The position numbers and the translations under genes are program-made. Of a stretch of DNA of 64,000 nucleotides, positions 23,158 to 55,547 are shown piece by piece (position 1 is the first letter of the stretch; each line of letters begins with the position of its first letter). The notes below the pieces were generated by a model. The model did not search any database and was not told where the DNA came from. It worked only from the letters and a program-made list of their open reading frames with translations. This DNA is from Escherichia phage MIZ4: sequence record OR167180. The stretch is one strand, 5' to 3'.

Positions 23158-23682
23158 TTAGTAGCCGCGTTCTTGACGGGCGAAGTTTTCAGCATTTTTC
23201 AGATAGTACAGAATAAAGAGTTCTTGAGCGTCAATACCCAGCGGGATCATCTTTGACAGAATGAAGTGGATCGCGTCCACAAATTCAAATTTCACTTCAA
23301 GCTGATCTTCTGGTGACAGTTCAGAGAATTTACGCGCTCGCGCTTCTCCGTGGTTCTTTTTCCACATTTTCCAGATTGCACTTGCATCTTTACCATTGGA
23401 CATTCCACCCAGCGATGTGTAAAGCTCTCGTGTTTCGTCTGCGATAGCGTCATCCATCCGTTGCATCCAATCCAGCATTTCACCGCAAGTCTCTAGCTTA
23501 GTTGGATTTGGGACCCAATCAAATTTTTCGGATAATGCAACCTGCAAACCAGTTTGCATTTCGAGCATCACCTGAAACGGATCTTTACCTTCTGCAATCG
23601 CGTGATGATATGCGGCGATAGCCGCGTTAATATCTTTTTCGTTAACCAGACCAGCACAAGAATTAAATTCTGACATATTCAC
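23158..23682 (-). CDS. 56: dCTP pyrophosphatase gp56-like (MazG-type NTP pyrophosphohydrolase)
   Basis: 174 aa; block similarity to T4 gp56 as recalled (DPFQVMLEMQ, PEDQLEVKFEFVD, LYYLKNAENFARQERGY); position upstream of primase. Confidence 0.7.
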   Translation of the reverse strand: MNMSEFNSCAGLVNEKDINAAIAAYHHAIAEGKDPFQVMLEMQTGLQVALSEKFDWVPNPTKLETCGEMLDWMQRMDDAIADETRELYTSLGGMSNGKDASAIWKMWKKNHGEARARKFSELSPEDQLEVKFEFVDAIHFILSKMIPLGIDAQELFILYYLKNAENFARQERGY

Positions 23683-25660: not shown

Positions 25661-26296
25661 TCAAGCGAATGTAGAAAGCAAATGTTTTGTTTCTTTCAGT
25701 TGTCGTTCAAGATCTTTGCGTTTCTCTTTAAGTTGCATTTTAGCATTATTTCGCTGTTTTTCAACATCTTTATCAATGCTCTTATTCCAGTTATCAATAT
25801 CAGAATAAGTTGGCATACCCAATTCTAGACCTAATGCGGTTGGATACAGGGTAACAGTCCATAAACCGCTAATCTTCTTAAATAGGTCTGGGTGTAGTGT
25901 ACTATCTACATCTTCCGGTGTCAACTCTTTTTCTTCTTTCGGTGGTGGGATCTCGTCATATGGTTCCAGTGCATTTACTTTAATATCAGATACCTCATCA
26001 AAGAATCCGCGTACATCCGCAGGAAATACACAAGCAATTTCCCAACCGTGATCACGCAGAGAAGTAATATTTTTCACTCCCCCACCATGTGTGATGATTG
26101 ATGTGACATTGCCATCGAGGTCCACCGAATTTACGAGAAATGGCTTATCGTCTGTCAGATCATTATAAAACTGTGCTTCGGCTGTAGTCATCTCCAGAAA
26201 CAGATCTCGGATCGGACGACCATCAGGTGCGTTACCTTCCTTGAGAGTATAAAAGCGACTTACGATCCATTTTGGCGGTAAAGCATTAGCGATCAT
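25661..26296 (-). CDS. Hypothetical protein (211 aa)
   Basis: ORF in the 41-61 interval. Confidence 0.5.
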   Translation of the reverse strand: MIANALPPKWIVSRFYTLKEGNAPDGRPIRDLFLEMTTAEAQFYNDLTDDKPFLVNSVDLDGNVTSIITHGGGVKNITSLRDHGWEIACVFPADVRGFFDEVSDIKVNALEPYDEIPPPKEEKELTPEDVDSTLHPDLFKKISGLWTVTLYPTALGLELGMPTYSDIDNWNKSIDKDVEKQRNNAKMQLKEKRKDLERQLKETKHLLSTFA

Positions 26297-26346
26297 GTTA
26301 TATCTCCTATCAAATCATTCACCAGCGCCCCGCAGGGCGCGTTTTA

Positions 26347-27759
26347 TTAGAAAGTCATGTTATTTGCTAGCTCGTCGAGTTTTTCTCGTTTCTCGGCTTG
26401 CTGTGCGCTTTGTGGTTTAACTTGTGCATTCTCCTGATCTGCGATCTGGTTTGGTACTTCATACCAACGCTGATTGCCTTTCTTCACACCAACGTTAAAC
26501 CGTGAATAATAGTTCTTATCACCGTAACGAGACTTGATCTGCTTCATGAGTTGGACGCCCATTTTAGCCAGGTCTTCGGTTTCGATAACACCCAACATAA
26601 AGTCGGCAGTAGCCGGAAGACCTGCTGATTCAGCGGTATCACTCATGTTAAGGTCGGAAGCATCCCAACCCGCGCGGGTAGTCTGTGCCGCAGTCCAACC
26701 AACAACATCCCACTTAACAAAAAATCCTCGCAGTTCTTCCGCAATCGCCTTAACTAGTGTGTAACTATTTTCAGAGTATACACGCAAGCGAGACGATGCG
26801 CAAATCCCAAGATAGTCAACAATCACAACATCAGGTTTAAACTGTTTCTTGAGTCGCAATTCATTCATTAACGCCTCAAAGTGATTGGAGTTCGCGCCAC
26901 CAGTCGGATACTGCTTGATCATCAATTTTCCAACCGGACGATCTCCGATCTTCTTATTCTTAACACGCTTCATGCGTGCGGAATATTCCGCAAAAGAAAC
27001 ATTACCATTATCCAATTCATCTAATGTAATGTCAAGCAAGTTTGCGTCGATACGTTTGGCTACGACATGCTCTGCCATCTCCATTGAGATATACAATACA
27101 TCATAACCACATTCCATATAATCCGCAGCAAGAGAACACAATCCAAGCGATTTACCAACGTTTACACCAGCAAGCAACACATTTAGCGTTTTTCTTTCCG
27201 CCCCTCCTTTCGTGATTTTATTCAACATCGGCAGCTTAAACGGGATCTTATTCGCCTTAGTCTGATATAGCAAGAATCGTTTTTCAAAGTCATTAAACCA
27301 GTCATGACCTACATCAGAATCAAACGTAATGGATAGTGCTTCCTGCATGATCTCAGGAATAGCACCCTCACTAGGCAATTTCTTATTCTGTTTCTCTTTT
27401 GGTAGTTGTGCGTTCGCCTGAATCTCTAGCGCCCGTGACATTGCATTGTACATAGCACGGTCACGAATAAATTTTTCGGTTTCCTTCATTAACCAATCAA
27501 GGTCTTCCGGTGTATTCTCAAGCGAATCAAGAAGAGTTTTAGCCCCTTCATATGTTGTCTGATTGCCTCTCTCCTTGTCTAAAGCAATCTGTAATGCAGT
27601 TGGCGTAGGAATATTGGAATATTCGTCTACGTGCTTTTTAATCAGCTTATAAATCAGTTTTTCTTCGTCTTCGGTGAAGTAGTCCGCTTTAAGGTGAGGC
27701 CATACATTCGTAAAGAATGCGCCATTGTAAATCAACTGTGAAAAGATAGTTTTAATCAT
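26347..27759 (-). CDS. 41: Replicative DNA helicase gp41 (DnaB-like)
   Basis: 470 aa; Walker A GVNVGKS; DnaB-family layout; synteny 41-61. Confidence 0.9.
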   Translation of the reverse strand: MIKTIFSQLIYNGAFFTNVWPHLKADYFTEDEEKLIYKLIKKHVDEYSNIPTPTALQIALDKERGNQTTYEGAKTLLDSLENTPEDLDWLMKETEKFIRDRAMYNAMSRALEIQANAQLPKEKQNKKLPSEGAIPEIMQEALSITFDSDVGHDWFNDFEKRFLLYQTKANKIPFKLPMLNKITKGGAERKTLNVLLAGVNVGKSLGLCSLAADYMECGYDVLYISMEMAEHVVAKRIDANLLDITLDELDNGNVSFAEYSARMKRVKNKKIGDRPVGKLMIKQYPTGGANSNHFEALMNELRLKKQFKPDVVIVDYLGICASSRLRVYSENSYTLVKAIAEELRGFFVKWDVVGWTAAQTTRAGWDASDLNMSDTAESAGLPATADFMLGVIETEDLAKMGVQLMKQIKSRYGDKNYYSRFNVGVKKGNQRWYEVPNQIADQENAQVKPQSAQQAEKREKLDELANNMTF

Positions 27760-28073
27760 ACATAGCCCCCAACTACACGCATAACAAAGGTCTTGAGTTT
27801 ATACCAGAAAGTTTCTTTTTTCAACTTTTCTTCTGCTTCTTTGATTTGCGCGGTTAACGCCTTAATGACGTGTGGATATACCACATCACGATCTGACGGC
27901 GTGGAGTAGTCGACCACAATACCTTTAGTGTCTGGATCGTATTCAACATTATGAATATAGACAATATGATGTTCTCCCTCTTCATCAACAATTATCAATT
28001 CCTGAATAACTGTCTTCATTGCTTCTTGAATCAAGCTGTGTGCTTCTTCTAAACTTGTTGGTTTCTTATCCAT
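27756..28073 (-). CDS. Hypothetical protein at the gene 40 position (105 aa)
   Basis: Located between uvsX and 41 as T4 gene 40; identity not verified. Confidence 0.4.
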   Translation of the reverse strand: MDKKPTSLEEAHSLIQEAMKTVIQELIIVDEEGEHHIVYIHNVEYDPDTKGIVVDYSTPSDRDVVYPHVIKALTAQIKEAEEKLKKETFWYKLKTFVMRVVGGYV

Positions 28074-28128
28074 AATATAATCCTCTCTAGATATGAAAAA
28101 GGGGCACGTAGCCCCTTTACTACCATTG

Positions 28129-29199
28129 TTATGCTAACATATCTTCGATTTCTTTGTCAACTGCTTCGTCGCTGATCACTTGCCCCAGCTTATAATGATC
28201 GTTGATTGCTTCGTTAAACTTATCGTTTGTCAGAAGTGGTTTCCAGAACTCAATGCTATTGGTTTCTTTAGCACGGAACTTGCGTTCTTCTGTTTCCATC
28301 TCTCCGGTCTCGGTATTTAGGATTGAACGAGAATACCAGCCGTTTGACGGTTTCACTACCCAGCCTAACTCTACAGCCAATTCCAGCAAGCCGGAATAAG
28401 GATCGATGCCACCGCTAAATGTTACGCTAATCGGGAACTTCGATTTTTCTTTAACGGTTCGTGATTTTTCCGCATTCAGGATAAAATCATAACCAGTAAT
28501 TTCGGTTCCTTCTTTCTGCTGACGACGACCAATAATGAAAACTTCATTGGCTGAATACATCGCGCCCGTACCGCCGGACATAACGGTCTTACTAAACATT
28601 TCTTGCGTTTCGTAAGTGTGGTTAATAGCGATGCACGGGATATCATTCATAGTCAGATACGGCGTAACCATACGGAACAAGCCTTTAAGTGCTTTCGCTC
28701 GCGTCATATCCTGTGCGGATTTCTCATTAATCGCGTCTTCAACTTCTTTTTTACTTGCCAAGTTACCGATTGAGTCAATAAAGATGATCACTTTATCTTC
28801 ACGGGTAATTTGCTCAAGCTGGTTCATGATTTCAAATTTAAGTTCTTCGATGTTCTTGATTGGAACATGCACTACGCGATCAGGATCTACGCCCATAGAT
28901 TCCAGATAAGCGGGCGTAATACCGAACTCAGAATCAAAGAACAAACAAGCCGCATCGGGATTCTGTTTCATGTATGCACTAACACAAGTTAATCCCATGT
29001 TTGATTTAAAGTGCTTAGACGGACCAGCAAAGAAAATCAGACCAGATTGAAAGCCTTTTTTAAGATCACCGGAAAACGCAATATTCAGCATCGGGATCTT
29101 AGTGCGAGTATTTGTTTTTTCGTTAAAGAAGCTGGATTTAGACAGTACCGCAGTAGTTTTCAGGGTAGAGTTCTTTTTCAGTTTTTCCAGTACAGACAT
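28129..29199 (-). CDS. uvsX: UvsX recombinase (RecA-like)
   Basis: Strong block similarity to T4 UvsX as recalled (RTKIPMLNIAFSG, GLIFFAGPSKHFKSN, CIAINHTYETQEMFSKTVMSGGTG, EKSRTVKEKSKF). Confidence 0.9.
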   Translation of the reverse strand: MSVLEKLKKNSTLKTTAVLSKSSFFNEKTNTRTKIPMLNIAFSGDLKKGFQSGLIFFAGPSKHFKSNMGLTCVSAYMKQNPDAACLFFDSEFGITPAYLESMGVDPDRVVHVPIKNIEELKFEIMNQLEQITREDKVIIFIDSIGNLASKKEVEDAINEKSAQDMTRAKALKGLFRMVTPYLTMNDIPCIAINHTYETQEMFSKTVMSGGTGAMYSANEVFIIGRRQQKEGTEITGYDFILNAEKSRTVKEKSKFPISVTFSGGIDPYSGLLELAVELGWVVKPSNGWYSRSILNTETGEMETEERKFRAKETNSIEFWKPLLTNDKFNEAINDHYKLGQVISDEAVDKEIEDMLA

Positions 29200-29210
29200 T
29201 ATTAATACCT

Positions 29211-29438
29211 CTATTCAGTTAATCCGTAATACTTTAATTGCTTCATTGTTATTCGACCTTTGTAGTGCTCTTGAATTAACTTTTTCATCGCATCAACATC
29301 GATCGTCACAAATACTTCGTTGCTGTGATTTCCGTGAACTTTCTTGAAATGCTCTATGCCTTCCTCACGTTCACGTTTAATCTTTTCAATGTCTCTCATA
29401 ATATATTTCTCACGTTGGCGGGTATCGTCACCCAACAC
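29211..29438 (-). CDS. Hypothetical protein (75 aa), the only ORF between uvsX and 43
   Basis: Charged soluble ORF; occupies the locus where T4 carries beta-gt, 42 and imm. Confidence 0.45.
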   Translation of the reverse strand: MLGDDTRQREKYIMRDIEKIKREREEGIEHFKKVHGNHSNEVFVTIDVDAMKKLIQEHYKGRITMKQLKYYGLTE

Positions 29439-29460
29439 CCGCCATTATACACACTTTATC

Positions 29461-30937
29461 TTAAATGTCAAACAGGTCAGTCAGAGATGCCACTTTTTCA
29501 TATTGCAGCTTTGCAGCCGTGGTAATGTTCTCCAGTGGTTTGACGAAAGTCTTATTAAACAACAAAGGCCAGTCCAACCACTTCAACACCTCTGATTCAA
29601 TTTCTGGCGGAATACGAGTACCAGACAACCAACCAAAACAGATTTCACCAAACGGATTTCGATCTTTCAGCGGTACAATCATAACCTTCTCGCCCTCACG
29701 AATCGGATCTAGTCCGAATTTTCGAGCATTACGATTATAACACAATACACTCTTAACCGCATACGGACAACCCTTAATCGGATACCCGTTTGAATCGCTG
29801 TATTTCTGTAGGTTGTTTGCAGATGATACCGCAGCAACATCAAGATAGTCAAGTTTTCTAAATTCTTGCTCAAAAATACCGTAGTATTCCTGCAATGAAT
29901 CTTCACCTTCCTGCAACATACGGCGAATACATTCTTTCAGTGATTTCTGACATGCTTTAGGGGTGGAGCTACGTTGCGTTTCCAAGCCCATGATTTTTAG
30001 CTTAGGTTCAGCAAAGCGCGTTCCTTCCATATCCCAAACATTAAGAGCATACCGCTTTTTACCAGTCCAGAATCCACCGATACCCGCAGATTTCAACGGA
30101 GGACCAGCAATTGCCTCTCGGTCCATAAACATCAAGTGCTCATAGTTGTTCATGTACTCGCATAACTCGCGATATCCCTTGTCGATAATAGGTTCCATTC
30201 GATGTTTACCGAAATTATCAAGGAAGTCAACAAGTTTTTCGGTATCGTCGAAACGGTCTTCCCCGCCAACCTTATCAATAACATTGTTAACCAGCACATA
30301 AACGGAGTCAGTATCACAATAACGAACATATGCAAAATCAGTCGTTCCGCAAAGCTCGTTTAAGTATTCGTTAATCTTACGCTCAATCCACTGAATTGCA
30401 AGCTGACCGAACAGTGTGATCGCACTAGCGTTACGGAGATCATAAAAACGGAATTTAGGATTCCCCAACGCACCATAAAGGGAGTTGATCAAAACTTTTC
30501 GAGAAAGCTGGTTTGTATTGCACAAGATCGACTCGTCTTTACATTCTTCCAGCAATTTCTCTAAGGCATCTTTACTTAATTCAGAAAGCATCGATTTAAA
30601 CGCTTCATCAAAGTCGTGACGCACTTCAACGCTATAGCTAATGGTTCCCCCATAAACATGATTTTCATCGTGTAGAATCGCTTTACATAGTTCAGCATTG
30701 CGATCACATGCCAACATCATGTTTTTGTACTGCTTACGCTGATCGAATACCTTTTTAATCTCAATCGGTACGATACCATGAATATCTTTTCGATACATCC
30801 ATCCGTTAGGCGAGCAAGAATACTCATCACTAGGACGCGGTGCAGTTTTATTGATATACTCGTGCATCGGTGCAGCATCAAAAGATCCAGCGATTGTTTC
30901 AGGCGAAATATTAACCTGACGGATGATTGATGGATAC
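29461..30937 (-). CDS. 43: DNA polymerase gp43, exon 2 (palm C-terminal part, fingers and thumb)
   Basis: Contains family-B motif B KVLINSLYGALGN and motif C YCDTDSVY; reading frame continues upstream of the annotated ATG through YPSIIRQVNISPETIAGSFDAAP to the intron 3' end. Confidence 0.85.
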
Positions 30938-32051
30938 CATTATGTTCAGCGCGGTTCGCTACTCCCGCGCCCGTTCTCTTGCGAACTGCTACATGTCACC
31001 ATGTAGATCAGACTATATCACATTCTCATAGAGAATCCTGCCATTTCGAATCGCTTGATTCTACTCTACTCGGTTCGTTACCCTTTCGATAGTCGTTGAA
31101 CAACTGCATCTTTAAGCTCATTTTGATCAAACGGTGTTCTCTTACAGTACCCGCTATAATTCTTGGCAAAAGGTTTCTTCTTACCAAAGATCTCTTTTCC
31201 TGAATTATGTGCTTCAACAAGAAAATTCACCATTTCATCAAATGTGAAACTTGTAAATTTAGCATAAGTTTCATTACGTTTTGACATTATTTTACTCATA
31301 ACTTCCGGTCGTTTAGACGCTGAATTTTCGCGCTTCTCGCCAGCATTAAATGATACTAACTCACCGGAAACATATCTAGGATCATCACAACTAACTCTAA
31401 ACCGATTTCCTTCCTTATCCTTAACGATAACAGTATTCTTTAGCTTTTCTGCCATAGAATCAAGACCTTTTCGTATAGTGTCCTCATCAGCCCCGAAATA
31501 TTTCTTTCCGCTCATATCGGTTCTGGCTTTTCCGGTCTTGTTTTCGGATATTTTCAGTCTAACTTCCTCTCGCTTGGCTGGGTTATTGTCTCCAGCGAAT
31601 GCATCTTTGGTTAACGCCTTCACTTTATCGTCATAAGATCCTCTAGAGATGAAAGCATATGCTCTCTTGCATTCACCGTTATTGAATATTAAGCACAATA
31701 ACCGATGCGCCTCGACGTGGTCTTCAAACTTAAGCCTAACAAGATTCCATTTATCTAACCGATATTCAGGGAACATTGACTTCGGGCATATATGATGCAC
31801 CTCGGAATATTCTTCACCCTGATACGGATTAGACACCAGTTTAATGTAGTCGTTTAATGCTTCCTCGTTATGTATTTCGTACTTTCTTAAAATGTCTTTC
31901 ATCTCGCGCCTCCAATGTATATCAATATTTATATACATTATAAGACACGTTAGCTCAAAATGCAACTGCTGCTGATTGTCTCCTTAGAGATTTCCCAGCA
32001 ATTAAGCAGGTTATTCGATCACTGTCACCAGTGAAAGCCCCATATCAGTTT
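30938..32051 (-). mobile_element. Group I self-splicing intron (td-like) interrupting gene 43 in motif A, carrying an HNH homing endonuclease gene
   Basis: Exon junction restores DLTSL|YPSIIRQ; intron ends ..GATATAGTCTG..CATGGTGACATG..CTGAACATAATG (resembles the T4 td intron 3' terminus as recalled); 5' part contains GACAATC-type core element; 5' exon ends in T, intron ends in G. Confidence 0.75.
31078..31902 (-). CDS. Intron-encoded HNH homing endonuclease
   Basis: HNH motif ..EVHHICPKS..EDHVEAHRLL; start set at ATG with GGAGG SD (ORF track uses upstream TTG); TATAAATA late-promoter-like element upstream inside the intron. Confidence 0.7.
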   Translation of the reverse strand: MKDILRKYEIHNEEALNDYIKLVSNPYQGEEYSEVHHICPKSMFPEYRLDKWNLVRLKFEDHVEAHRLLCLIFNNGECKRAYAFISRGSYDDKVKALTKDAFAGDNNPAKREEVRLKISENKTGKARTDMSGKKYFGADEDTIRKGLDSMAEKLKNTVIVKDKEGNRFRVSCDDPRYVSGELVSFNAGEKRENSASKRPEVMSKIMSKRNETYAKFTSFTFDEMVNFLVEAHNSGKEIFGKKKPFAKNYSGYCKRTPFDQNELKDAVVQRLSKG

Positions 32052-33253
32052 AGGGAAGTAAGGTCAAAGCTCATCATCCAACGGTAAGCATTCGGCACAG
32101 GTTCTTTTACGAATGCGCCAGGATAAGTCTGCTTAGGCTGTATCTTGTTCTCCGGTACTACTTTACCCTCAGCTTTCAGAGATCCGAAGATAATAGCATC
32201 CCATACTTTCATCGGGTTATAAACATGGTTAAATTTAATCTTTGCATAGAAACATAGGCTATACACCAGATCGATAAATCCACGCTTTTTATCAATCGCC
32301 AGCACACGGTCAACGTCGCCGATGTTATAATCTATGTAAAGTTGATGGTTATCATCACGCAATTTCTTTAACGGACCATCATAATCAACCTTACCGATTC
32401 CTGTCTCATATTCAGCAACATAATCTAACGCATATGTTGGTTGAGTCGTAAAGCTAAATTTCTTGTACAGGTCAATATAATCAAGGCTTTCGATCCCCAT
32501 GATCGTAAATGCTTCACGCTCGTTGCCAAAATCATCCTGTGAGATTCGGGATTTAATCTTACCGCACGGGCTTAGACGGTTAGCGGTTCTACTTCCGAAC
32601 TTATTACTGATACGTTTAATGATATATGGAATATCGAATGTTTCTGTGTTCCAGCCAGTGAAACCAACGGGTCGGTTTTCCTCAAAGAATCGGATGTATT
32701 CTAACAGCAATTCATCTTCTGTGTCATAGACGTTATAAACAACGCGCTCTACAATATCAGGTCGAAGAATAGACTTGCTTGCTTCCCAGATTTCACCGCT
32801 TTTTCCTTTCAAATCAAATACAAAGAAACGATCATGTACGGAATCATAATGCGTAATTGCATCGATAGGATATTTCGCTTCTTCTGGTTTAGGAAATTCC
32901 GGTGCAGTGACCTCGATATCAACCCATGCTACACGGATTTTATTTCGGTCATATCGAATCTCGCCTTTATATGTATCGGACAGATAGGAGATGATAAAAT
33001 CATCCATCCCTAGTGCCTCCTGCCCCATTTCTCCCATCTTTTTACGCCATTTGTTGGCCTCGTTCATAGATGGGAATTTTTTAGCAATGCAAGGCTTGCC
33101 ATAGATATCTTTATAATTCGTAACCATACCAGGCGCGGCATGATGAAATAAAGTTGGCGTATATTCAACGTAACGCTCTTGTTCTTGTCCAGCATCATCA
33201 ATATAACGCTCGTAGATCTTATCACCCACTCGCTCACATGACAGAAAATACAT
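32052..33253 (-). CDS. 43: DNA polymerase gp43, exon 1 (N-terminal and 3'-5' exonuclease domains to motif A)
   Basis: Block similarity to T4 gp43 N-terminus (ERYID, FPSMNEA, DIEVT, YDSVHDRF, GWN.E.FDIPY, YNIGDV, SFDLTSL); start set at ATG 33253 with GAAGGAG SD. Confidence 0.85.
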
Positions 33254-33335
33254 AATATAAACTCCTTCACTTACGAAAGACACTCATTATAGGGGAATCG
33301 ACTTAGTTTGTCAATACCCCTATCCCATCAGTATC

Positions 33336-33698
33336 TTAGCGTCCGATCTGATATTTCTCGATCAGCGTCCACTCTTCTTTCTGTTTGAAAGACAGTACAC
33401 GGAAATTATTAACTTCGGTAGTTTCAAAATCACTATCAATCAGGGTACACAGATTCCACTGCGCAAGAAGTTTTGCAATGTTATTACGGCGCAATTCATC
33501 TTCCCACGTCATTTTAACACTACGACCATCTAATTTCAACAACTCCTTGAAATGAACGATGTAATAGCGCCCTTTCTTCTGGAGAATATGACAAGACTGA
33601 TACAGCGTCTTGTCTCGATTGTTGGCAATGCCGCAGCGGGTTAAAGTTTCCTTAATTTTAAGGAAGTTTTCAGGACTAATCAAATTAATTTCAATCAT
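33336..33698 (-). CDS. regA: Translational repressor RegA
   Basis: 120 aa; near-identical blocks to T4 RegA (KETLTR.GIANN.DK.LYQSCHILQKKG.YYIVHFKE, NNFRV.SFKQK.EW). Confidence 0.9.
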   Translation of the reverse strand: MIEINLISPENFLKIKETLTRCGIANNRDKTLYQSCHILQKKGRYYIVHFKELLKLDGRSVKMTWEDELRRNNIAKLLAQWNLCTLIDSDFETTEVNNFRVLSFKQKEEWTLIEKYQIGR

Positions 33699-33699
33699 T

Positions 33700-34278
33700 T
33701 TACCACCTTTCTATAATCTTTTTAAGTCGTTTCCTTTCTGTCTGATTCTTAGTAACACCCGCCAAAAGTTCATCGGTCGCATACGGTTTAATGTGCTTCA
33801 ATAACTTGTCCATATATCCCTTTTCATTAGCCAAATCGAGATAAAACCGGGCGTCATCCATATTTACACAATATGCTTTCGCCACTGCCATTAAAACCAA
33901 TTTTTGGTCCAATTCTTCTGTTAGTTTAGCCCATTTACCGTATCGTTTCCCCTTAGAAATACTCTGTAAGAGATAATCAAAATGCATTTGATCTGGGAGG
34001 CCATGACCGATTAAATTCATCACATACGCGCTATATAGGCAATCTGCGTGCTGGGAAAGAGCGGTGTTAATCCATCTCTGGTTATATGCAGAATTGTTTC
34101 CCACATTAACACGCTGTTTATCTAAGGTGATATGATCCATCAGAGCAAATAATGCATTGTCGGTTTTCTCGGTGAATGTGTCAGCTAATTCAGACACCTT
34201 TTCCCAATCACGAGAGCGCCATGCAATTTCATGCTCGTTTAATTGTGTATCATCTTCACCGAAAAATTGACCTAACAT
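33700..34278 (-). CDS. 62: Clamp loader small subunit gp62
   Basis: 192 aa; blocks shared with T4 gp62 (QLNEH..AW.S.DW, KRYGKWAKL); synteny. Confidence 0.85.
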   Translation of the reverse strand: MLGQFFGEDDTQLNEHEIAWRSRDWEKVSELADTFTEKTDNALFALMDHITLDKQRVNVGNNSAYNQRWINTALSQHADCLYSAYVMNLIGHGLPDQMHFDYLLQSISKGKRYGKWAKLTEELDQKLVLMAVAKAYCVNMDDARFYLDLANEKGYMDKLLKHIKPYATDELLAGVTKNQTERKRLKKIIERW

Positions 34279-40131: not shown

Positions 40132-41166
40132 CTAACTTTTTGCGCTATTTACTTCGGCTAAAAGTTCATCAGAAATACGCTTGACCGCCGCAAGTTCTTC
40201 CGGTTCTAGGTTTTGTTCTTCCAGATATTCATAGACCATCTGAATAGTGCTTTTAACTTCAATAACACCTGTTTCCTGTGATGCGCTACTCTCCAGCTTA
40301 TGGACCACTTTTAGCTTGTGTACAACGGCCTCTAACGCGCTTTCTAACTTAGTTAACCCATTATCAGCGACCGTTGCGATAAGACGCACACTAAGCCCCT
40401 TAAAGCGTTCTACATCGATTTTATCATCTGACGGGTAAGTGATACGCACATGATAAGTTTTGTCATTCTGGATAAACTCTTTTTTGTGTGTATCGGTATC
40501 GAATACCCAAAACCCACGCGGATCGTTTTCGTCACCCGCCGTTAGTGTGTATGGTGTACCTATATACGTTACGTTACCGCCATCACTGATAGTATGAAAG
40601 TGACCCGAAAACACTTCACGGTATTTCTTTAGGAAGTCCGCGCTATAACCTTCGGATTTTAGCCCTTTATAGAAATAGTAACCGGACAATTCCCAATGGC
40701 CTACACAATATTCGCTGAATGAGTTTTGAATAAACTCTAAAATCTCTGATTTATTGTCATCACAAAACCACGGGAACAGATCAAATGATACACCATCAAA
40801 GGTGACTGTTTCCGGCTTATCAATAACCTTAATGCAATCATACTGGCTTAACACTTCACGCGGTGCGTTAGGCTGGATCTTGTTTCGTTTAAACATATCA
40901 TGATTCCCAACCGTGATATAACAAGTAATACCAGCCTCTTCCAGTAGCGGGATGATTTTCGTTCTATTAAAACGCATAGTTGCATGTGTGATTGCTTTTC
41001 GGCAATCAAACCAGTCCCCTGTCTGAATCCATGCCTTAATATTATGTTTTTTTGAATAATCGACTGCCTTTTTAATAGTATCAAGAATATACTCATGTAT
41101 CCACGGATCATCGTTGCCGATACCAGTATGCAGATCACCCAAAAGCAAAATTTTCATATTATACAT
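40132..41166 (-). CDS. 47: Recombination endonuclease subunit gp47 (Mre11/SbcD-like phosphoesterase)
   Basis: Metallophosphatase motifs LLGDLH, GDWFD, GNHD; blocks shared with T4 gp47 (GHWEL.G, SGHFHTIS, TAGDENDPRGFW). Confidence 0.9.
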   Translation of the reverse strand: MYNMKILLLGDLHTGIGNDDPWIHEYILDTIKKAVDYSKKHNIKAWIQTGDWFDCRKAITHATMRFNRTKIIPLLEEAGITCYITVGNHDMFKRNKIQPNAPREVLSQYDCIKVIDKPETVTFDGVSFDLFPWFCDDNKSEILEFIQNSFSEYCVGHWELSGYYFYKGLKSEGYSADFLKKYREVFSGHFHTISDGGNVTYIGTPYTLTAGDENDPRGFWVFDTDTHKKEFIQNDKTYHVRITYPSDDKIDVERFKGLSVRLIATVADNGLTKLESALEAVVHKLKVVHKLESSASQETGVIEVKSTIQMVYEYLEEQNLEPEELAAVKRISDELLAEVNSAKS

Positions 41167-41172
41167 AATCTC

Positions 41173-41727
41173 CTAAAAATTTTTAACACCATATTCACCA
41201 AAATAAAGATCAACCGCTTTGTCATAAGCTCTGGCCGCATCTTCTTCGTTGACATAATACCCAAGAGATATTAGTTTATCATTATTTCGTATTCTTGCAA
41301 CCCATTTCTTCGTATGTTTATGCCAGCTAACCCCTTTATACTTGCTTGCTTTATTCTTGTACTTTCCAACGTTACAAGCATTTTTCTTTGCGTCGGACTC
41401 TCTAAGATTGCGTGGTGCGTTGTTTAAAGGATTTCGGTCTATATGATCTATAATTTCTGGTTGTGTTCCATGCTCAAGAAACCATACAATACGATGTACA
41501 TATGGCTTTAAAACCCTCCCATTATCCATAACAATTGCAATTTGGAGATGATCCTGACTTTTAAAAGTTTTTACTTTATCTCCTGCCTTATAAAACTTTC
41601 CTTCGTAATTCTTTCCTCCGGCTCGGCTATTCTTTAAATGATAAAGAATACCATCGTCGTCATGTCTATATCTTTCTCGTATAATTCGTTGCGTTTCTTC
41701 ATCCCACAATTTGGAACGTCTACTCAT
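41173..41727 (-). CDS. HNH homing endonuclease with AP2 DNA-binding domain
   Basis: HNH core HRIVWFLEHG..IDHIDRNPLNN..N; C-terminal AP2-like YKGVSWHKHTKKWVARIRN..LGYYVNEEDAARAYD; sits where T4 has alpha-gt. Confidence 0.7.
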   Translation of the reverse strand: MSRRSKLWDEETQRIIRERYRHDDDGILYHLKNSRAGGKNYEGKFYKAGDKVKTFKSQDHLQIAIVMDNGRVLKPYVHRIVWFLEHGTQPEIIDHIDRNPLNNAPRNLRESDAKKNACNVGKYKNKASKYKGVSWHKHTKKWVARIRNNDKLISLGYYVNEEDAARAYDKAVDLYFGEYGVKNF

Positions 41728-41817: not shown

Positions 41818-42105
41818 TTACAGCATACTTAATACCGTTTGCCGTGTACTAATCCACATAGCAGAAAGCAGTTCTGGTGTGTGTGGCTGTTTGTAGATAT
41901 CACGTAATTTTCCGATAGCGTAGATATACGCATCACGATTATCATCGATGATAGCTTGCTCAGCCCACCGCTTAAGTCGTGCAATCTCTCGCGAGTTCTT
42001 ACGCAAGATCTTTTCCGCTTTCTTAGCGGCTTTAGCCTCTAGTTCTGCTTGTACTTTGTCTACTTCATTCACTGCAATCTTGTCATGCTGTTCATTGCAA
42101 GTCAT
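41818..42105 (-). CDS. Hypothetical protein (95 aa)
   Basis: ORF downstream of 55. Confidence 0.45.
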   Translation of the reverse strand: MTCNEQHDKIAVNEVDKVQAELEAKAAKKAEKILRKNSREIARLKRWAEQAIIDDNRDAYIYAIGKLRDIYKQPHTPELLSAMWISTRQTVLSML

Positions 42106-42106
42106 A

Positions 42107-42340
42107 TTATTTTACCTCTGGGATATAATCAATTATTAAAGAAAATTCATCTTCTGATACATTATAGCTATGTGAGATTGTACCCGTCAAGACCTCAAGA
42201 TCCGGTGATTTGATATTGCACGGATCGATAATCACCGGAACGCCGCAATCTCTCAAAAATAATTTGGCGAAATACGGCACAAGGTCAGTTTCAAACTCTG
42301 CTTCTTCCAGCAAACGGGAAATGTTAATTTTCAATCTCAT
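42107..42340 (-). CDS. Hypothetical protein (77 aa)
   Basis: ORF downstream of 55. Confidence 0.4.
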
Positions 42341-42857
42341 AAAATTGGTCCAGGCTAGGCAATTCCTCGGTCAATACATCTTCAACCTTTGGCGCTTTCG
42401 GTTTATTGACCGATTCCTCGTAGTTGTTGATTTTATCGTAAATGTCCTGTATGAATGCCTCATCAGCAATCTGGCACATATCAGCGTCGCGTTCGTCATA
42501 TACATGATGCACAAAATATTTGTATTTTGCGGCTGTCGCTGTTCTTTCTTTTTTAATGCGCTGCACAAAAGCATTAAAGCACGCTTGCGTGATGTAAGCA
42601 TGAGGATTTTTATACTTTGTCTCGTCAAAATTAATCAAACCCTTGACCGCCGCTTCGATTCCATCGTCGATCATTTCTTCGCGCCATGTTTGACTATAGC
42701 CAGAAAAGTTAAAACGCCGTGATAGATTTTTAGAGATTTGCATAATTGCCAGGCCGATTTGGTCACTCATTGGCACTTGCCGACCTTCTGCTGCAATTCG
42801 TTGTTTCCAACGGCAAATTTCTTCGTAAAGCTCTTTATTGTTTACATAATCAGACAC
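42324..42857 (-). CDS. 55: Late sigma factor gp55
   Basis: 177 aa; long near-identical block to T4 gp55 ([57 protein letters not shown]). Confidence 0.95.
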
Positions 42858-42897: not shown

Positions 42898-44367
42898 CTA
42901 TTCCCCATTACCATTATACTTTCTTTGCTTAGTTATCCACACTCTAACCATCTCTACTGATTCACCGTCAGAGGGATCAAGAGTTTTTCCTTTTTTCTTC
43001 ATGCGGTACTTAAATCCGTTAAATCTTGCATTCTCTTGCTCGTTAAAGTCGAACATCTTTTTAAATGATTTTCTCCCTTTACGCTCACCGCATTCTAGCG
43101 GAATCATTCGGTCTGTTATTACATTGGCATTAGGTAGAAACGTTTTTAGATAATCTACCAACGCCCAATCAGGAACATATAGATTAACATTCTCCTTGCT
43201 CTCGTTGTCTCTCAGGTTACAACGCAAACATAATTGAAATGCTGGTTCCAGATAATCAGACACATGACGCGCTTTCAAAAACTCATTTGTCGGGAGATCA
43301 CAACTATTAGCAAGACCTTTTAAAATATCAATCTCCCATCGTTGAGGGTTAAAGCTGAACATCACAGCAACATTTTTATGATGAATGTAAGAGTTAAGAC
43401 CATAAGATCCGTAAGGTATCCGCTCACCAATACCATTTGTACACGCTTCACGGTCCCGATTCACGGTATAAATGAAGTCATCACCACATTCATTTTTAAC
43501 CATATCAACCAGACGTTCAAAGGTATTGTTTGTTTCTGACTGGTGACGCGACCATCGTTCGGAGTCCGTCATAAGGATGATGTTAACTCTATCTGTATTT
43601 TTATACTCTTTGAAATATAGTCTGGATTCTAGCGCACTCGGAACAAAATCGCAATTTGCATAGTATCGTAGATACTTCCCACTATATGTATCAAAGAGAT
43701 TTGCACATGCTATCGTAACCTTTTTAAAGTCTCCCCACGTACCGTGTTTGTTATCGTTCAAGAAAACAATTTTCGACCCATTCTTCCGGTGGCCTTCGTT
43801 ATGTTTTACCATAACGTTGATTTTCTTCTCTAATAACGCCTCATAAAGCCCTCTAAGAGAAGAATCGATCATATCAGTACCATCCTTTGCACTTTCTATC
43901 TTTTCTTTGATAGCGGCCTTCTCAGAGTCTTTTAGAACTAAGTTCTGTAGGCATTCCGATTCGTCGGCGATTGGTTCGCAATGCTTCGTGATAAGTTCAA
44001 GATTAGACTTAAACGGATACTCATTAAATTCAACCAGTTGAGGAACTTCATCAATGTAAAGAGCATAATCACCAAACATTTTTGAACGTTCCATATTAGA
44101 TAACGCTGTATGTGTAATGAATATCACATCAGCACCATCTTTAACTGATTGCATTATCGACGCTTGCACTGTCTTAAGGCTTCTTAGTCTTGTGCTATCA
44201 ATCAAGACAGCACGACCGCCCATTCTTTTAAACTTATTGTAAGATTGTTCACTTAAAACACGAGATGGCGAAGCAATAACCGCTTTTTCTTTTGTCTCTA
44301 GGACGTGGGAAAGTATAGCATCAGTTTTCCCCGCCGCTGGCAATGCGATTAATGTTTCAATCTTCAT
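42898..44367 (-). CDS. P-loop NTPase / helicase-like protein of unknown function (489 aa)
   Basis: Walker A-like ALPAAGKT at residues 8-15, Walker B-like LYIDEV ~100 aa downstream; Cys/His-rich basic C-terminal half; no confident family assignment. Confidence 0.55.
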   Translation of the reverse strand: MKIETLIALPAAGKTDAILSHVLETKEKAVIASPSRVLSEQSYNKFKRMGGRAVLIDSTRLRSLKTVQASIMQSVKDGADVIFITHTALSNMERSKMFGDYALYIDEVPQLVEFNEYPFKSNLELITKHCEPIADESECLQNLVLKDSEKAAIKEKIESAKDGTDMIDSSLRGLYEALLEKKINVMVKHNEGHRKNGSKIVFLNDNKHGTWGDFKKVTIACANLFDTYSGKYLRYYANCDFVPSALESRLYFKEYKNTDRVNIILMTDSERWSRHQSETNNTFERLVDMVKNECGDDFIYTVNRDREACTNGIGERIPYGSYGLNSYIHHKNVAVMFSFNPQRWEIDILKGLANSCDLPTNEFLKARHVSDYLEPAFQLCLRCNLRDNESKENVNLYVPDWALVDYLKTFLPNANVITDRMIPLECGERKGRKSFKKMFDFNEQENARFNGFKYRMKKKGKTLDPSDGESVEMVRVWITKQRKYNGNGE

Positions 44368-44834: not shown

Positions 44835-45093
44835 AAATCTCCCTCAGTTCTTTATAGCCTCCAATGTGCTCGTTGTCAATGAATATCTGGGGGTATACAA
44901 ATCGGAGGCTCTTTGAGTTCAGCCTCCCCGCCAGTTCTTCAATCATATCACGGTCGGGAATAATGTCAACCCCAACCTGCTTGAATACTGGTTTAAGTGT
45001 ATACGGAATACCCAGATCATCCAGTAGCTTCATTGCACTAATACAACCATAACAATGATAAGCCTCTTTCGGTATGCCGTATATCTCGATCAT
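44824..45093 (-). CDS. Glutaredoxin/NrdH-like redoxin
   Basis: 89 aa; CYGC active-site motif near the N-terminus; thioredoxin-fold pattern. Confidence 0.6.
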   Translation of the reverse strand: MIEIYGIPKEAYHCYGCISAMKLLDDLGIPYTLKPVFKQVGVDIIPDRDMIEELAGRLNSKSLRFVYPQIFIDNEHIGGYKELREIYDY

Positions 45094-45611
45094 TTCTCAG
45101 CCTTTAATCTTTCTAGTTCTTCTTCCAGTTCCTTGATCCGTTGGTCACGTTCAAAGTCACGCTGCAACTTAGTGGCGAATACTCGTTTAAACTGATTGTA
45201 ATCATCGATTTTAAACACTTCTTCTTCGCCATAGCGACGCACAGAAACTTCGTAGTTGTTGAAAAATTGTTCCAACATTGCATCAGTAGTCAGTTCTGAC
45301 GACACCACTTTAAAATAACGTTCTTCGGATTGCAAAAACCAGTTGTGCGCGTATTCCCGTACATCATCAACATCTCGACAGGTGTATGTTTTTCCATCAA
45401 TTTCAATCGCAGAAACATATTCGATATCTGATGCAATTTTTTCAAAAGCGATAACTTTAAATGTACGGTCACCGATAAAGTCTGCTATTGCATCATTTGC
45501 AACACTGGTTGCAAAGGCTTTCCGCGCTCGCTCGTTTTTCCACTGATAGGTCATACCAACAACAAACATATTACCATCAACAAACATATTACCATCCTCG
45601 CTCTTTACCAA
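45090..45611 (-). CDS. Paralog family A member (173 aa; true start possibly internal)
   Basis: N-terminal G(K/M)TY.WK motif; DGNMFV repeat from an 18-bp tandem duplication; C-terminal coiled coil. Confidence 0.45.
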   Translation of the reverse strand: MVKSEDGNMFVDGNMFVVGMTYQWKNERARKAFATSVANDAIADFIGDRTFKVIAFEKIASDIEYVSAIEIDGKTYTCRDVDDVREYAHNWFLQSEERYFKVVSSELTTDAMLEQFFNNYEVSVRRYGEEEVFKIDDYNQFKRVFATKLQRDFERDQRIKELEEELERLKAEK

Positions 45612-46413
45612 TCAAAAATTCAACTTCACGACGTTTAATGTCTTCTTGAAGGTCTTTAATCTTCTGGCGATCTTGCATTATTTCGTCCATCTTGTCAAGT
45701 GCTGCGATGAAATCATCGAAACGTTCAAAGGTTTTACCTTCATTTGCTTCGCCAAATTTAACCATTGTCAGGCCGTAACGACTACTAAACAGACGTTTCA
45801 ACTGTCCAACGATTTTAGAATCAGTGGTTATAACTTCCAATTCTTCTACTTCACGAAAGAATTTTCTATCAGAATCAATAAACCAGCTAGTTCCTTTATG
45901 GTTGCTATCTTCGGTTGCACTCATTAGAGTATGGTCTTTACCATCAATTTCAATTACATCAATTTGCCCACATGGACGAACATTTTTAACAGTAAAAGGT
46001 CTATAATTTATTGCTCGTGCAATAACATAATTAAGATTAGATACGTTTTCAGCATAATGGCAGAAGTCGGTCATAGCATTCACGTCTTTCCAAGTATAAG
46101 TTTTACCAACTTCCCATTTCTGGGGAACTTCTTCAACTTCACGAAAGAATTTTCTATCGAATGGACTAAAGAAATATGTTGCAGTCCAAATGTCTTTTCC
46201 TGTAGCAGTTTTCGCCGTATGATAAACACCGTCTAGCTCTATTGCATTAATCCAACCGTTGCCATCGATCTCGATGATGGTAAATGGCTTGTCACCAATA
46301 GCTGCACTAATATCGCTGTTAAGTGGAGAAAGAACACCTTCTCCGTTAGTAATAAACTCAGTTTTAGCGTTTACATCTTTCCAAGTGTAAGTTTTACCAA
46401 TTTCCCATTTCAT
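45589..46413 (-). CDS. Paralog family A member with internal domain duplication (274 aa)
   Basis: Two copies of KWE.GKTYTWKDVNA..DRKFFREVEE module. Confidence 0.5.
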   Translation of the reverse strand: MKWEIGKTYTWKDVNAKTEFITNGEGVLSPLNSDISAAIGDKPFTIIEIDGNGWINAIELDGVYHTAKTATGKDIWTATYFFSPFDRKFFREVEEVPQKWEVGKTYTWKDVNAMTDFCHYAENVSNLNYVIARAINYRPFTVKNVRPCGQIDVIEIDGKDHTLMSATEDSNHKGTSWFIDSDRKFFREVEELEVITTDSKIVGQLKRLFSSRYGLTMVKFGEANEGKTFERFDDFIAALDKMDEIMQDRQKIKDLQEDIKRREVEFLIGKERGW

Positions 46414-46425
46414 AATATATTCCCC

Positions 46426-46905
46426 TTAACCGATTTTATCAAGTTCGTTTAATGCTTTCTCAGCTTCCTGTATAGCTTGCACCCTTTCCGGCATTTTGTC
46501 AAGAAAATCTTTCAACTCTTCAAAACTGGAGATATGACGCAAGGCATTAGCACCGATAGCCGCATGTGATTTGCATTCAAAGCGAATTTTATAATTATCC
46601 ATAGCCAATTTGAGAAGATCAATTAATTTAGATTCTTCTGGAATAATAATTTCTTCAAATCTGCTACGGTCATGATCCAGAAACCAACAAGATAGACCTA
46701 CATCGGTTGAACTCATATAAGTTCCATCATGAAGATAAACAGACCGCACGTATCCTTTTTTCGCATCAACCGACGCAACTTTAAACGGTAATCGCAGATA
46801 TTTCAAATAATCAACATCATACCATTTAAAAAATTGATTTGCATCTTTTACATCTTTCCACGCATAGGTCTTACCAGCTTCCCATTTCATAATATCATCT
46901 CTCAT
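46426..46905 (-). CDS. Paralog family A member (159 aa)
   Basis: MKWEAGKTYAWKDV.. N-terminus shared with neighbours. Confidence 0.5.
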   Translation of the reverse strand: MRDDIMKWEAGKTYAWKDVKDANQFFKWYDVDYLKYLRLPFKVASVDAKKGYVRSVYLHDGTYMSSTDVGLSCWFLDHDRSRFEEIIIPEESKLIDLLKLAMDNYKIRFECKSHAAIGANALRHISSFEELKDFLDKMPERVQAIQEAEKALNELDKIG

Positions 46906-47431
46906 TTTTGATACGTGATTCTAATTGGATCATACGGTCGCGCGTTTGTTTGTATTCTCGGATAGCACCGATCCGGCTAGGCATACCATCCAGTACGCTC
47001 TTAATACCTTCTAGGGTAGTAATTTTGGCAATGCTATTATGTAACCCCATCTTATCGATCAACTGAATGTCGTAGGCTTCCATAAGCAGACCCAGGCGTT
47101 CTAAAGTTAGGTCTTCTTCTTTTTCTTCCGAATCTGGAATCTTATGTTCAATAGTAACTTCGGTAAAGAAACGACGCTCACCCGACCAAAACCACACGCC
47201 GGAACAGCCAATAGGGGATTCTTTTAACGTCATAGAGTCGAAATTACTACCAATAATAGTAATTTCTCTAACATCACCATCATCGTCAAGGTCTTCTACC
47301 CTAAACGGGCGACCAGCCAACAAGTCAACAATACATCTGTTAATAGACGACGAAAATTTAGTCAGTTCGGCTTTCGACGCTTCGCATTCAATCTTGTAAG
47401 TTTTACCAACTTCCCATTCCATAATAATCAC
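46895..47431 (-). CDS. Paralog family A member (178 aa)
   Basis: MEWEVGKTYK.. and ERRFFTEV motifs shared with neighbours. Confidence 0.5.
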   Translation of the reverse strand: MIIMEWEVGKTYKIECEASKAELTKFSSSINRCIVDLLAGRPFRVEDLDDDGDVREITIIGSNFDSMTLKESPIGCSGVWFWSGERRFFTEVTIEHKIPDSEEKEEDLTLERLGLLMEAYDIQLIDKMGLHNSIAKITTLEGIKSVLDGMPSRIGAIREYKQTRDRMIQLESRIKNER

Positions 47432-49300: not shown

Positions 49301-49332
49301 CAAAACGAAAAGCCGACCCTTTCGGATCGGCT
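49301..49332 (-). terminator. Terminator-like hairpin after nrdD
   Basis: agccgaccctttcggatcggct imperfect inverted repeat with flanking T-run on the minus strand; near-identical copy at ~61691. Confidence 0.45.
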
Positions 49333-49337
49333 AAAAA

Positions 49338-51244: not shown

Positions 51245-51739
51245 TTATTTTACCAGTTCTGCTAATTCTTTTTCCGCCGCTTCCAGTTCAGCTTTAAGCT
51301 GTTTAATCTCTTGTCGCTTCTTATTAGCGGCTTCCTGCTTACTATTTCGGATAACCTGATCTAGATACAACTCCCAATCCTGAATATTTTTGATAATGTA
51401 TCCGTCAACATTAATTGGTCGGAGATTCAGTACAGCTTCCAGTTTAGTCGCAAAAACTTTAATTGCTGGTGTGAAGTATTCATATTCGTTATCTTCAAAC
51501 CAATAACCTAGACTTGCATTATCAATACGAAGACGAAGTTTAAGATCAAGGTCTTTATCGTCGGTGTAAAGATCTTTCACCTGCCCCATCGAGCTAACAA
51601 CAACTTTAAAACGAATTTTATCTACACCGCCAAAAACATCTTCAAGAATATCAGCAATTGAGCTATTAGCGCAAGATTGGTCGCTGAATGCGTCAAGGTT
51701 TTCTTTAGTTACAGTATACCAAACATCTTGTACCCACAT
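51245..51739 (-). CDS. Paralog family B member (164 aa)
   Basis: C-terminal coiled coil; conserved SD-spacer; promoter upstream. Confidence 0.45.
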   Translation of the reverse strand: MWVQDVWYTVTKENLDAFSDQSCANSSIADILEDVFGGVDKIRFKVVVSSMGQVKDLYTDDKDLDLKLRLRIDNASLGYWFEDNEYEYFTPAIKVFATKLEAVLNLRPINVDGYIIKNIQDWELYLDQVIRNSKQEAANKKRQEIKQLKAELEAAEKELAELVK

Positions 51740-54734: not shown

Positions 54735-55547
54735 TCAATCTACGTTAGTTACATAAACTTCTTGCGTATCAGAAGACTTACCACCTGAACGATCTAGGCA
54801 ATAGGTCTTATTCAACAAGACGCAGTTTAAATCATTCCGCTTGATAAAGTCAAGAAGATGATCATTTACCTTTCCCTTATGATGTGTGACATTACTGATA
54901 CCAAACTGAAAACCACGCGCCATAATAGATTCTACCCACTGATAGAATTTAATCTCTTCTTCTTCACTCCAGAACTTATTATATTCTGCCGATGTGATCC
55001 AATATGGCGGGTCCAAATAAACGAAATCACCTGGCAAGATCTCGATCTCGTCATAGCGACCAGACGTAAAACTGATTCGACCGTCTTTGTTTTCTTCCTT
55101 AAAATTCAGGACACGCTCTACCGCGTTTTCGTTAAAAGTCCGGCGACCAAAATTAGCATTAAATTCTCCCTTCCTGTTATGGCGGTTAATGTTGCTAAAA
55201 CTGTGCTGAATCAGAACAAACAGAGATAGCGGATCTGGATTCTCATTATACTTCTTACGGAATGCCATGTAAGCGTCTTTATCTTCGCGAGACAAACCAT
55301 TTTCGGCAATAATACGCTTGATCGTAGAAACCGGATCAGGACACTCGTCAATCGCTTTGTACGCGTCAATTAAGCGGTGATCATAGTCATTAGCCAGCAC
55401 ATCCCCTTCTACGTACAGAGACACGCTCAAGCCACCACAAAAGGCATCGACAAAGCGGTTATAGTGCTTAGGGAAATACTTACTAACACCAGGCAATAAC
55501 TTTTCCTTATTGCCCGTATAGGGAATTAAACCTAATGCTTTCTTCAT
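54735..55547 (-). CDS. dam: DNA adenine methyltransferase (Dam-like, N6-adenine)
   Basis: Motif I FCGGLSV and motif IV DPPY; 270 aa. Confidence 0.85.
   Translation of the reverse strand: MKKALGLIPYTGNKEKLLPGVSKYFPKHYNRFVDAFCGGLSVSLYVEGDVLANDYDHRLIDAYKAIDECPDPVSTIKRIIAENGLSREDKDAYMAFRKKYNENPDPLSLFVLIQHSFSNINRHNRKGEFNANFGRRTFNENAVERVLNFKEENKDGRISFTSGRYDEIEILPGDFVYLDPPYWITSAEYNKFWSEEEEIKFYQWVESIMARGFQFGISNVTHHKGKVNDHLLDFIKRNDLNCVLLNKTYCLDRSGGKSSDTQEVYVTNVD

Follow-up and report, generated by a model that had tools for sequence, protein, structure and literature searches.

The stretch of DNA analyzed here (the window, 64,000 nucleotides) comes from a Krischvirus lineage that lacks the network of T-even genes for cytosine hypermodification and uses ordinary dCTP for replication, a reading to which we assign a probability of about 0.85. 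The absence of the genes for hydroxymethylcytosine (hmC) and its glucosylation is real, but it is expected for an RB49-type phage, and the gene-content finding is already known, having been published since 2010 (PMC2993671; PMC12115623, Table 4). The window is identical to positions 64001 to 128000 of Escherichia phage MIZ5, and the genome searched was the complete MIZ5 record (OR167181.1; 165,508 bp), of which the window makes up 39%. An 8-kb query (window positions 26000 to 34000) was 100% identical to MIZ5 (Straboviridae, Krischvirus, RB49-like) and, over the shared parts, 98.6% identical to RB49, which places it within Krischvirus. The same segment is 97 to 99% identical to the Krischvirus genomes RB49, phi1, JSE, and ECD7 ("pseudo-T-even"); in all, about 60 RB49-type phages other than MIZ5 match the query at 97 to 99% nucleotide identity. 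No publications on MIZ phages were found in a literature search.

In T4, the two gene orders at issue are uvsX-segA-b-gt-42-imm-imm.1-43 and 47-47.1-a-gt-mobB-a-gt.2..5-55, which the preliminary description of the window had given correctly, and its observation that the hmC and glucosylation genes are missing from the corresponding intervals holds for these gaps and for the genome as a whole. When T4 proteins were compared by tblastn with the complete MIZ5 genome, b-gt and a-gt gave no match with an E value of <0.5; imm, imm.1, alc, denB, and ndd gave no match; and arn gave a match at chance level only (E = 0.016). In the same search, T4 gp42 matched td alone (E = 0.006). The td product, encoded by the sole TS-family gene of MIZ5, scored 283.6 bits on the ThyA equivalog TIGR03284 (cut-off, 108), compared to 30.6 bits for T4 gp42, and is a true ThyA in which the Asn of the LPFNVASY motif, the residue that selects dUMP, is present. 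A Pfam scan confined to 20 hypothetical proteins of at least 140 amino acids (aa), drawn from the whole genome, in which about 150 ORFs are smaller than this, found no glycosyltransferase, TS-like, or Tet/JBP domains.

The preliminary description had also considered that the modification genes might sit elsewhere in the genome, a thought favored by the small share of the genome that the window represents. This option is refuted, and we regard the chance that hmC and glucosylation genes exist outside the window as virtually nil: the search of the whole 165,508-bp record for homologs of gene 42, a-gt, and b-gt found none, the largest unannotated gap between coding sequences anywhere in the MIZ5 genome is about 415 nt, so that no gene of 250 to 400 aa can be hidden, and a published survey of Krischvirus genomes concurs (PMC12115623, Table 4). 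In Krischvirus, the dCTPase-dUTPase and denA are present and hmC, denB, ndd, and alc are absent (PMC12115623, Table 4; PMC8056088), and tables published in 2010 (PMC2993671), 2021, and 2025 show which T4 relatives carry genes 42, 56, a-gt, b-gt, alc, denB, and denA. HpaII and NheI cut RB49 DNA, which contains neither hmC nor glucosyl-hmC (PMC4041780), and the Krischvirus TB34 has canonical nucleosides by liquid chromatography-mass spectrometry (LC-MS) (PMC13390438).

With the T4 hmC/glucosyl-hmC system MIZ5 shares orthologs of 56, 1, cd, td, frd, denA, and dam (denA, cd, and frd were found as tblastn matches; td, nrdAB, tk, and gene 1 are annotated), and the replication genes that flank the two gaps are collinear with those of T4. 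The enzymes that define the T4 system (42, a-gt, and b-gt), however, are absent from the whole MIZ5 genome, as are alc, denB, ndd, and arn, which in T4 are dependent on the DNA being modified. With respect to gene 42, to the glucosyltransferases, and to alc/denB/arn, MIZ5 thus falls outside the T-even hmC/glucosyl-hmC system. The features of the window on which the analysis is based are listed in Table 1.

Table 1. Positions of genes and regulatory elements in the window (position 1 is the first nucleotide of the window)
Feature	Position	Strand	Basis
gp56 ortholog, all-alpha NTP pyrophosphohydrolase (dCTPase/dUTPase family)	23158..23676	-	T4 collinearity, Pfam, PHROG
uvsX (RecA-like recombinase), border of the uvsX-43 interval	28129..29199	-	64% identity to T4 UvsX; annotated DNA repair protein
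62-aa ORFan (phrog_12120), sole gene of the uvsX-43 interval	29211..29399	-	PHROG profile match
12-bp G/C-rich stem-loop, stem-loop half of the PeSL	29416..29444	-	RNA fold
Perfect sigma-70 early promoter TTGACA-16-TATAAT, promoter half of the PeSL	29444..29471	-	Overlaps the end of gene 43
Gene 43 DNA polymerase, C-terminal part, other border of the uvsX-43 interval	29461..30867	-	Pfam DNA_pol_B; annotation
HNH homing endonuclease inserted in gene 43	31078..31902	-	phrog_12434 HNH endonuclease
Gene 43 DNA polymerase, N-terminal (exonuclease) part	32045..33253	-	Pfam DNA_pol_B_exo1
Gene 47 (SbcD-like), border of the 47-55 interval	40132..41166	-	Annotation
HNH-AP2 homing endonuclease, at the T4 site of 47.1, a-gt, and mobB	41173..41727	-	Pfam HNH_3 and AP2
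T4 a-gt.4 homolog	41818..42105	-	tblastn E = 2.5e-12; Pfam DUF2654 E = 1e-22
T4 a-gt.5 homolog	42107..42340	-	tblastn E = 1.4e-7; DUF5491 21.2 bits, below the Pfam cut-off of 27
Gene 55 late sigma factor, border of the 47-55 interval	42324..42857	-	Annotation
Dam-family N6-adenine DNA methyltransferase	54735..55547	-	Pfam MethyltransfD12 (PF02086) E = 2e-29

The 47-55 interval does contain the HNH-AP2 endonuclease and the two small ORFs first described there, but the latter proved to be the homologs of T4 a-gt.4 and a-gt.5. Since both are kept, T4 synteny is kept too, and what is missing is confined to a-gt, mobB, a-gt.2, and a-gt.3. In the Krischvirus SAP, the HNH-AP2 endonuclease is absent and the a-gt.4 homolog comes immediately after gp47. 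Compared to its Krischvirus relatives, MIZ5 carries extra homing endonuclease insertions, namely, this one in the 47-55 gap and another that splits gene 43; the latter is absent from both RB49 and SAP, in which gene 43 is a single 2679-nt ORF without an HNH insertion.

The uvsX-43 interval (positions 29200 to 29460, 261 nt) holds one gene. This ORF, initially read as 75 aa (29211..29438), is real, but that length is too long: it is a 62-aa ORF starting from the ATG at 29399, because the PHROG profile covers only residues 14 to 75 and poor conservation is seen nowhere but in the 13-residue extension. The 62-aa length is the one annotated in MIZ5 and SAP, and the GTG at 29438 is a spurious start that sits within a stem-loop, with a perfect promoter immediately upstream of it. 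The order uvsX, 62-aa ORF, 43 is common to MIZ5, SAP, and one related metagenomic contig, and the ORF is also found in RB49. It is a genus-restricted ORFan that matches no Pfam or NCBIfam family, is represented by only four near-identical clusters (94 to 98% identity) among 5.8 billion proteins, has weak tblastn matches to 60-aa hypothetical proteins in unrelated 45- to 49-kb phages, and yields an AF2 model of low confidence (pLDDT 65). Nothing ties it to DNA modification.

The arrangement in front of this ORFan, a near-perfect sigma-70 promoter with a G-run/C-run stem-loop directly after it, is that of a PeSL (promoter-early stem-loop). The promoter matches the consensus at 12 of 12 positions and is one of 9 perfect sigma-70 promoters on the minus strand of the window, where 0.2 were expected; the stem-loop has a folding energy of -25.7 kcal/mol, better than that of every one of 200 shuffled sequences (z = -5.4). 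A second promoter of the PeSL type borders gene 43 at positions 33286 to 33314. Compared by layout, the cassette is the same as the PeSL cassettes bordering gene 43 in RB49 and phi1 (Arbiol et al. 2010, PMC2839356; Comeau et al. 2014, PMC4122927), in which PeSLs are found on both sides of that gene (PMC2839356). In MIZ5, the early-promoter/stem-loop cassette would drive the 62-aa ORFan.

The gp56-like gene noted in the preliminary description (23158..23682) is present, although its end coordinate needs correction, the annotated start being the ATG at 23676. Along its full length, the protein is collinear with T4 gp56 and has 49% identity to it (172 of 171 residues), and its scores on Pfam dUTPase_2 (24.8 bits; gathering threshold, 22.9) and phrog_173 (E = 5e-37) assign it to this family, for which homologs were found in 1,396 phage records. 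Its AF2 model is confident and all-alpha (pLDDT 94). gp56 shares the Pfam dUTPase_2 domain and the predicted all-alpha fold with the all-alpha NTP-PPases (dimeric dUTPase/MazG/DCTPP1 superfamily), and the best Foldseek matches were DCTPP1 and the MazG-like dUTPase DR2231; these matches are weak (E about 2, TM 0.4 to 0.6), and base-recognition residues are not transferable from DCTPP1 or DR2231 to gp56. In an alignment of 43 to 44 homologs, all 27 to 28 invariant columns are kept in MIZ5, including the acidic metal-binding residues D80, E81, E84, E127, E131, and D134.

Gene 56 occurs in nearly all T4 relatives, and giant phages without it carry host-like dUTPase genes (PMC2993671, Petrov et al.); gp56 belongs to the quasi-core of T4-like phages, both those that make hmC and those that do not. 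No trimeric Dut was found in the MIZ5 genome with an E. coli Dut sequence as the query, and gp56 is the only dUTPase candidate in that genome. We infer that its conserved, selected role here is that of a dUTPase/dUDPase. gp56 may have been kept as the only dUTPase/dUDPase of the phage, which would keep uracil out of DNA and supply dUMP to the phage Td/Frd pathway. Residual hydrolysis of dCTP/dCDP would have to be mild and, combined with dCMP deaminase, would shift the pyrimidine pool toward dTTP, as would suit a genome with 40% G+C.

A changed substrate of gp56, which the preliminary description had put forward, would be plausible on physiological grounds, but consistent support in the sequence was not found. 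In its strongest form, that of gp56 being now a strict dUTPase/dUDPase without dCTPase activity, adapted to ordinary-cytosine DNA, we consider the proposal tentative, although worth serious attention. From the established physiology of T4, a dCTPase of T4 strength would be expected to starve a phage that needs dCTP. Among the conserved positions, moreover, position 74, six residues before the catalytic D80-E81, is M in MIZ5 and M, W, or C in the six closest sequences, compared to Q or N in all 38 others, and two homologs with the hydrophobic residue at this position (P0005 and P0009) lie on contigs without gene 42 between 43 and uvsX (for P0011 and P0012, the 10-kb flank ends short of the 43-uvsX junction). 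Against this, only two conserved positions (L34F and Q74M) differ in the Krischvirus clade, and Pseudotevenvirus Margaery and Slopekvirus KP27 keep Q at position 74 although gene 43 adjoins uvsX in both, so the residue does not track the loss of gene 42 in general. Q74M was therefore rejected as a general marker of gene 42 loss.

The Dam methyltransferase was found where it had been placed. It scores 150.7 bits on TIGR00571 (cut-off, 114.85), is 46% identical to T4 Dam, and keeps the FCGG and DPPY motifs, by which it belongs to the Dam family and is, judged by sequence, the T4 Dam ortholog. Its locus differs from that in T4, where dam sits between 56 and 61.

Palindromic restriction sites are strongly depleted in MIZ5. 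As many as 21 of the 64 hexamer palindromes are absent genome-wide (23 of 64 in the window), compared to 2 of 3511 nonpalindromic hexamers with an expected count of at least 15. In the MIZ5 genome, GAATTC was observed 0 times versus 46 expected and TCCGGA once versus 71 expected; other absent palindromes, with their expected counts, are AAGCTT (39.5), ACCGGT (37), and GGATCC (35). Palindromes made up of A and T alone are about as frequent as expected. The same depletion is seen in SAP (2 observed versus 280 expected) and RB49 (0 versus 139), whereas T4, of which 81 kb was compared, shows none (summed observed/expected ratio, 0.94). GATC itself is not avoided in MIZ5 (917 observed versus 878 expected; T4 has GATC at 0.34 of expectation), and among the hexamers that contain it, TGATCA is unavoided (0.97) and GGATCC is absent. 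Dam methylation blocks BclI and does not block BamHI. The loss of palindromes fits a lineage whose unmodified cytosine DNA has long been open to attack by type II restriction enzymes, GATC being probably covered by Dam. Protection against restriction would then come from Dam methylation of GATC and the wholesale loss of type II palindromes instead of from base replacement. The preliminary suggestion of a different DNA-modification strategy is thus right insofar as canonical cytosine, Dam, and palindrome avoidance appear to stand in for the T-even system, and wrong insofar as some other hypermodification is meant. Depletion limited to palindromic hexamers is also what characterizes restriction site avoidance (Rusinov et al. 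2018, PMC6286503); compared to that description, the degree in MIZ5 is unusually strong, with one third of the hexamer palindromes gone, and contrasts with T4, a member of the same virus family. A literature search found no paper describing restriction site avoidance in RB49-type phages.

One report is at odds with ordinary cytosine in Krischvirus DNA. SAP DNA was described as containing about one third 5-hmdC and two thirds alpha-gentiobiosyl-mdC, by a pathway called unknown (PMC13390438, 2026), yet SAP is 99.96% identical to the unmodified TB34, and its hmC was called "curious and as yet unexplained" in the same paper (PMC13390438). A cryptic Krischvirus pathway of cytosine hypermodification, non-homologous to gene 42 and the glucosyltransferases and with gp56 still acting as a dCTPase that feeds dCMP into it, would account for SAP being modified and BrxU sensitive while no synthase or glycosyltransferase gene was found (PMC13390438), and would be in keeping with gp56 having retained all family-invariant residues. 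We nevertheless judge it very unlikely. SAP has the same gene order as MIZ5 and nothing extra in the syntenic gaps; the extreme palindrome depletion that it shares with RB49 is not found in the long-hypermodified T4; and both RB49 and TB34 are experimentally unmodified. In addition, the modification profile of SAP is that of seven co-isolated Tequatroviruses, and SAP DNA was the least cut by BrxU (PMC13390438).

The differences between SAP and TB34 also look like sequencing errors. Fourteen single nucleotide polymorphisms (SNPs) were published, and all 12 that could be checked fall on the central base of CCSGG; in one 50-kb stretch, 8 of 17 CCSGG sites bear a SNP, and in a second stretch, 4 of 10 do. 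The 10 indels checked are all in homopolymer runs, and the listed indels would frameshift essential genes (gp43, uvsX, gp45, gp47, and others). With SNPs and indels of this kind, SAP and TB34 appear to be genetically identical, which leaves no genetic basis for one being modified and the other not. At 6 of 7 comparable SNP sites, RB49 has the same base as SAP. Miscalls at Dcm sites (CCWGG) in SAP were considered as a source of the SNPs and rejected, since RB49 sides with SAP, so that it is TB34 that has the aberrant bases and the sites are true CCSGG. A mixed or swapped SAP DNA preparation would be likelier than a new pathway. That Krischviruses, including MIZ5, can replace cytosine with hmC or glycosyl-hmC by means of unrelated enzymes, with the retained gp56 a dCTPase feeding the hidden pathway, seems to us improbable in the extreme.

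The CCSGG pattern also bears on a second methyltransferase, encoded outside the window (record positions 153348 to 154187), that might add site-specific modification, possibly of CCSGG, to the antirestriction strategy. The gene has a conserved counterpart in RB49, annotated there as a DNA methyltransferase, and its product has an NPPF amino-methyltransferase motif and matches phrog_3820, a DNA methyltransferase family; the TB34 assembly, moreover, differs from SAP and RB49 only at CCSGG, a systematic miscall of the kind that base modification can cause. We consider such a role unlikely, however. The best profile matches of the protein are to the protein and rRNA methyltransferases PrmC and RsmC, all far below cut-offs; LC-MS found no modification in TB34 (PMC13390438); the miscalls could be a mere basecaller artifact; and CCSGG is itself strongly depleted (34 observed versus 95 expected), which argues against protection at this site.

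That the lineage of MIZ5 is without the T-even network and replicates with ordinary dCTP re-derives the textbook difference between T-even and pseudo-T-even phages and, as such, changes little. Taken together, the genome-wide negative result, the error-like differences between SAP and TB34, and the avoidance signature suggest that the SAP report needs retesting before a hunt for a pathway is started. The near-total loss of type II sites, beside the retained Dam and the Krischvirus-specific Q74M change in gp56, offers handles on the means by which a T4-like phage manages when its bases are not replaced.

Restriction-site palindromes, as judged from hexamer counts, were extremely avoided both in the window and in the whole genome of MIZ5, with 23 of the 64 hexamer palindromes absent from the former and 21 of the 64 from the latter. 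In MIZ5, GAATTC was not observed at all (46 expected) and TCCGGA was observed once (71 expected), and neither AT-only palindromes nor non-palindromic hexamers were depleted. Such avoidance was not seen in T4, the hydroxymethylcytosine-modified reference; conversely, GATC was depleted in T4 but not in MIZ5.

Among the related Krischvirus phages, SAP (OZ034687.1) carried CC[C/G]GG where TB34 carried CC[T/A]GG at all SNPs checked (12/12), and RB49 agreed with SAP at 6 of the 7 sites that could be compared. These CCSGG differences could reflect CCSGG-directed modification of TB34 DNA, or they could be an artefact of basecalling. A second methyltransferase gene of MIZ5, the product of which contains an NPPF motif, is annotated as a DNA methyltransferase; its best profile matches were to PrmC- and RsmC-type proteins, all of them far below the cut-offs.

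For gp56, a protein of the dCTPase/dUTPase family that is encoded at 23158-23676 of the window, two alleles were found among Krischvirus records: identity to the MIZ5 protein was at least 99% in 38 records and only 60 to 80% in 20 (e.g., MIZ3). The replacement of Q74 by M, W, or C in this protein was clade specific. The thymidylate synthase of MIZ5 reaches 410 aa through an inserted segment of about 135 aa, which lies in the variable small-domain region and is flanked by sequences matching ThyA at full score.

Coordinates of features of the MIZ5 genome
Feature	Position	Numbering	Strand	Remark
Perfect promoters	13162, 15120, 16105, 29444, 33286, 49268, 51770, 57140, 60114	window	minus	TTGACA-N15-18-TATAAT match
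Gene 43	29461-33253	window		two ORFs
HNH homing endonuclease	31078-31902	window		carried by the 1.1-kb insertion in gene 43
489-aa protein	42898-44367	window		directly downstream of gene 55
Five-paralogue family	45090-47422, 51245-51739	window		gene 55 on one side, nrdG/nrdD on the other
Large terminase	1-2817	record, outside window		938 aa
Thymidylate synthase	49325-50557	record, outside window		
Second methyltransferase	153348-154187	record, outside window	late	between baseplate genes 8 and 9

All nine perfect early promoters in the window, for which the chance expectation was 0.2, were located on one strand, and no tblastn match to motA or asiA of T4 was obtained anywhere in the MIZ5 genome. 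Near gene 55, which encodes the late sigma factor, a family of five paralogous genes was present, with 23 to 30% identity and the shared motifs W-E-x-GKTY-x-WKD ... IE-DG ... WF-D-ER-FF-EV; one member holds the domain as two tandem repeats. The 489-aa protein, a member of phrog_2467, gave a weak N-terminal match to a DEAD helicase (Pfam E = 3e-6).

The DNA polymerase gene (gene 43), which is an unsplit gene of 2,679 nt in RB49, SAP, and many other Krischviruses, is split in MIZ5, its two ORFs being separated by an insertion of 1.1 kb. The large terminase of MIZ5 is longer than that of RB49 (607 aa) and contains a LAGLIDADG_3 domain at residues 364 to 422, with the appearance of either an intein or a homing endonuclease inserted in frame.
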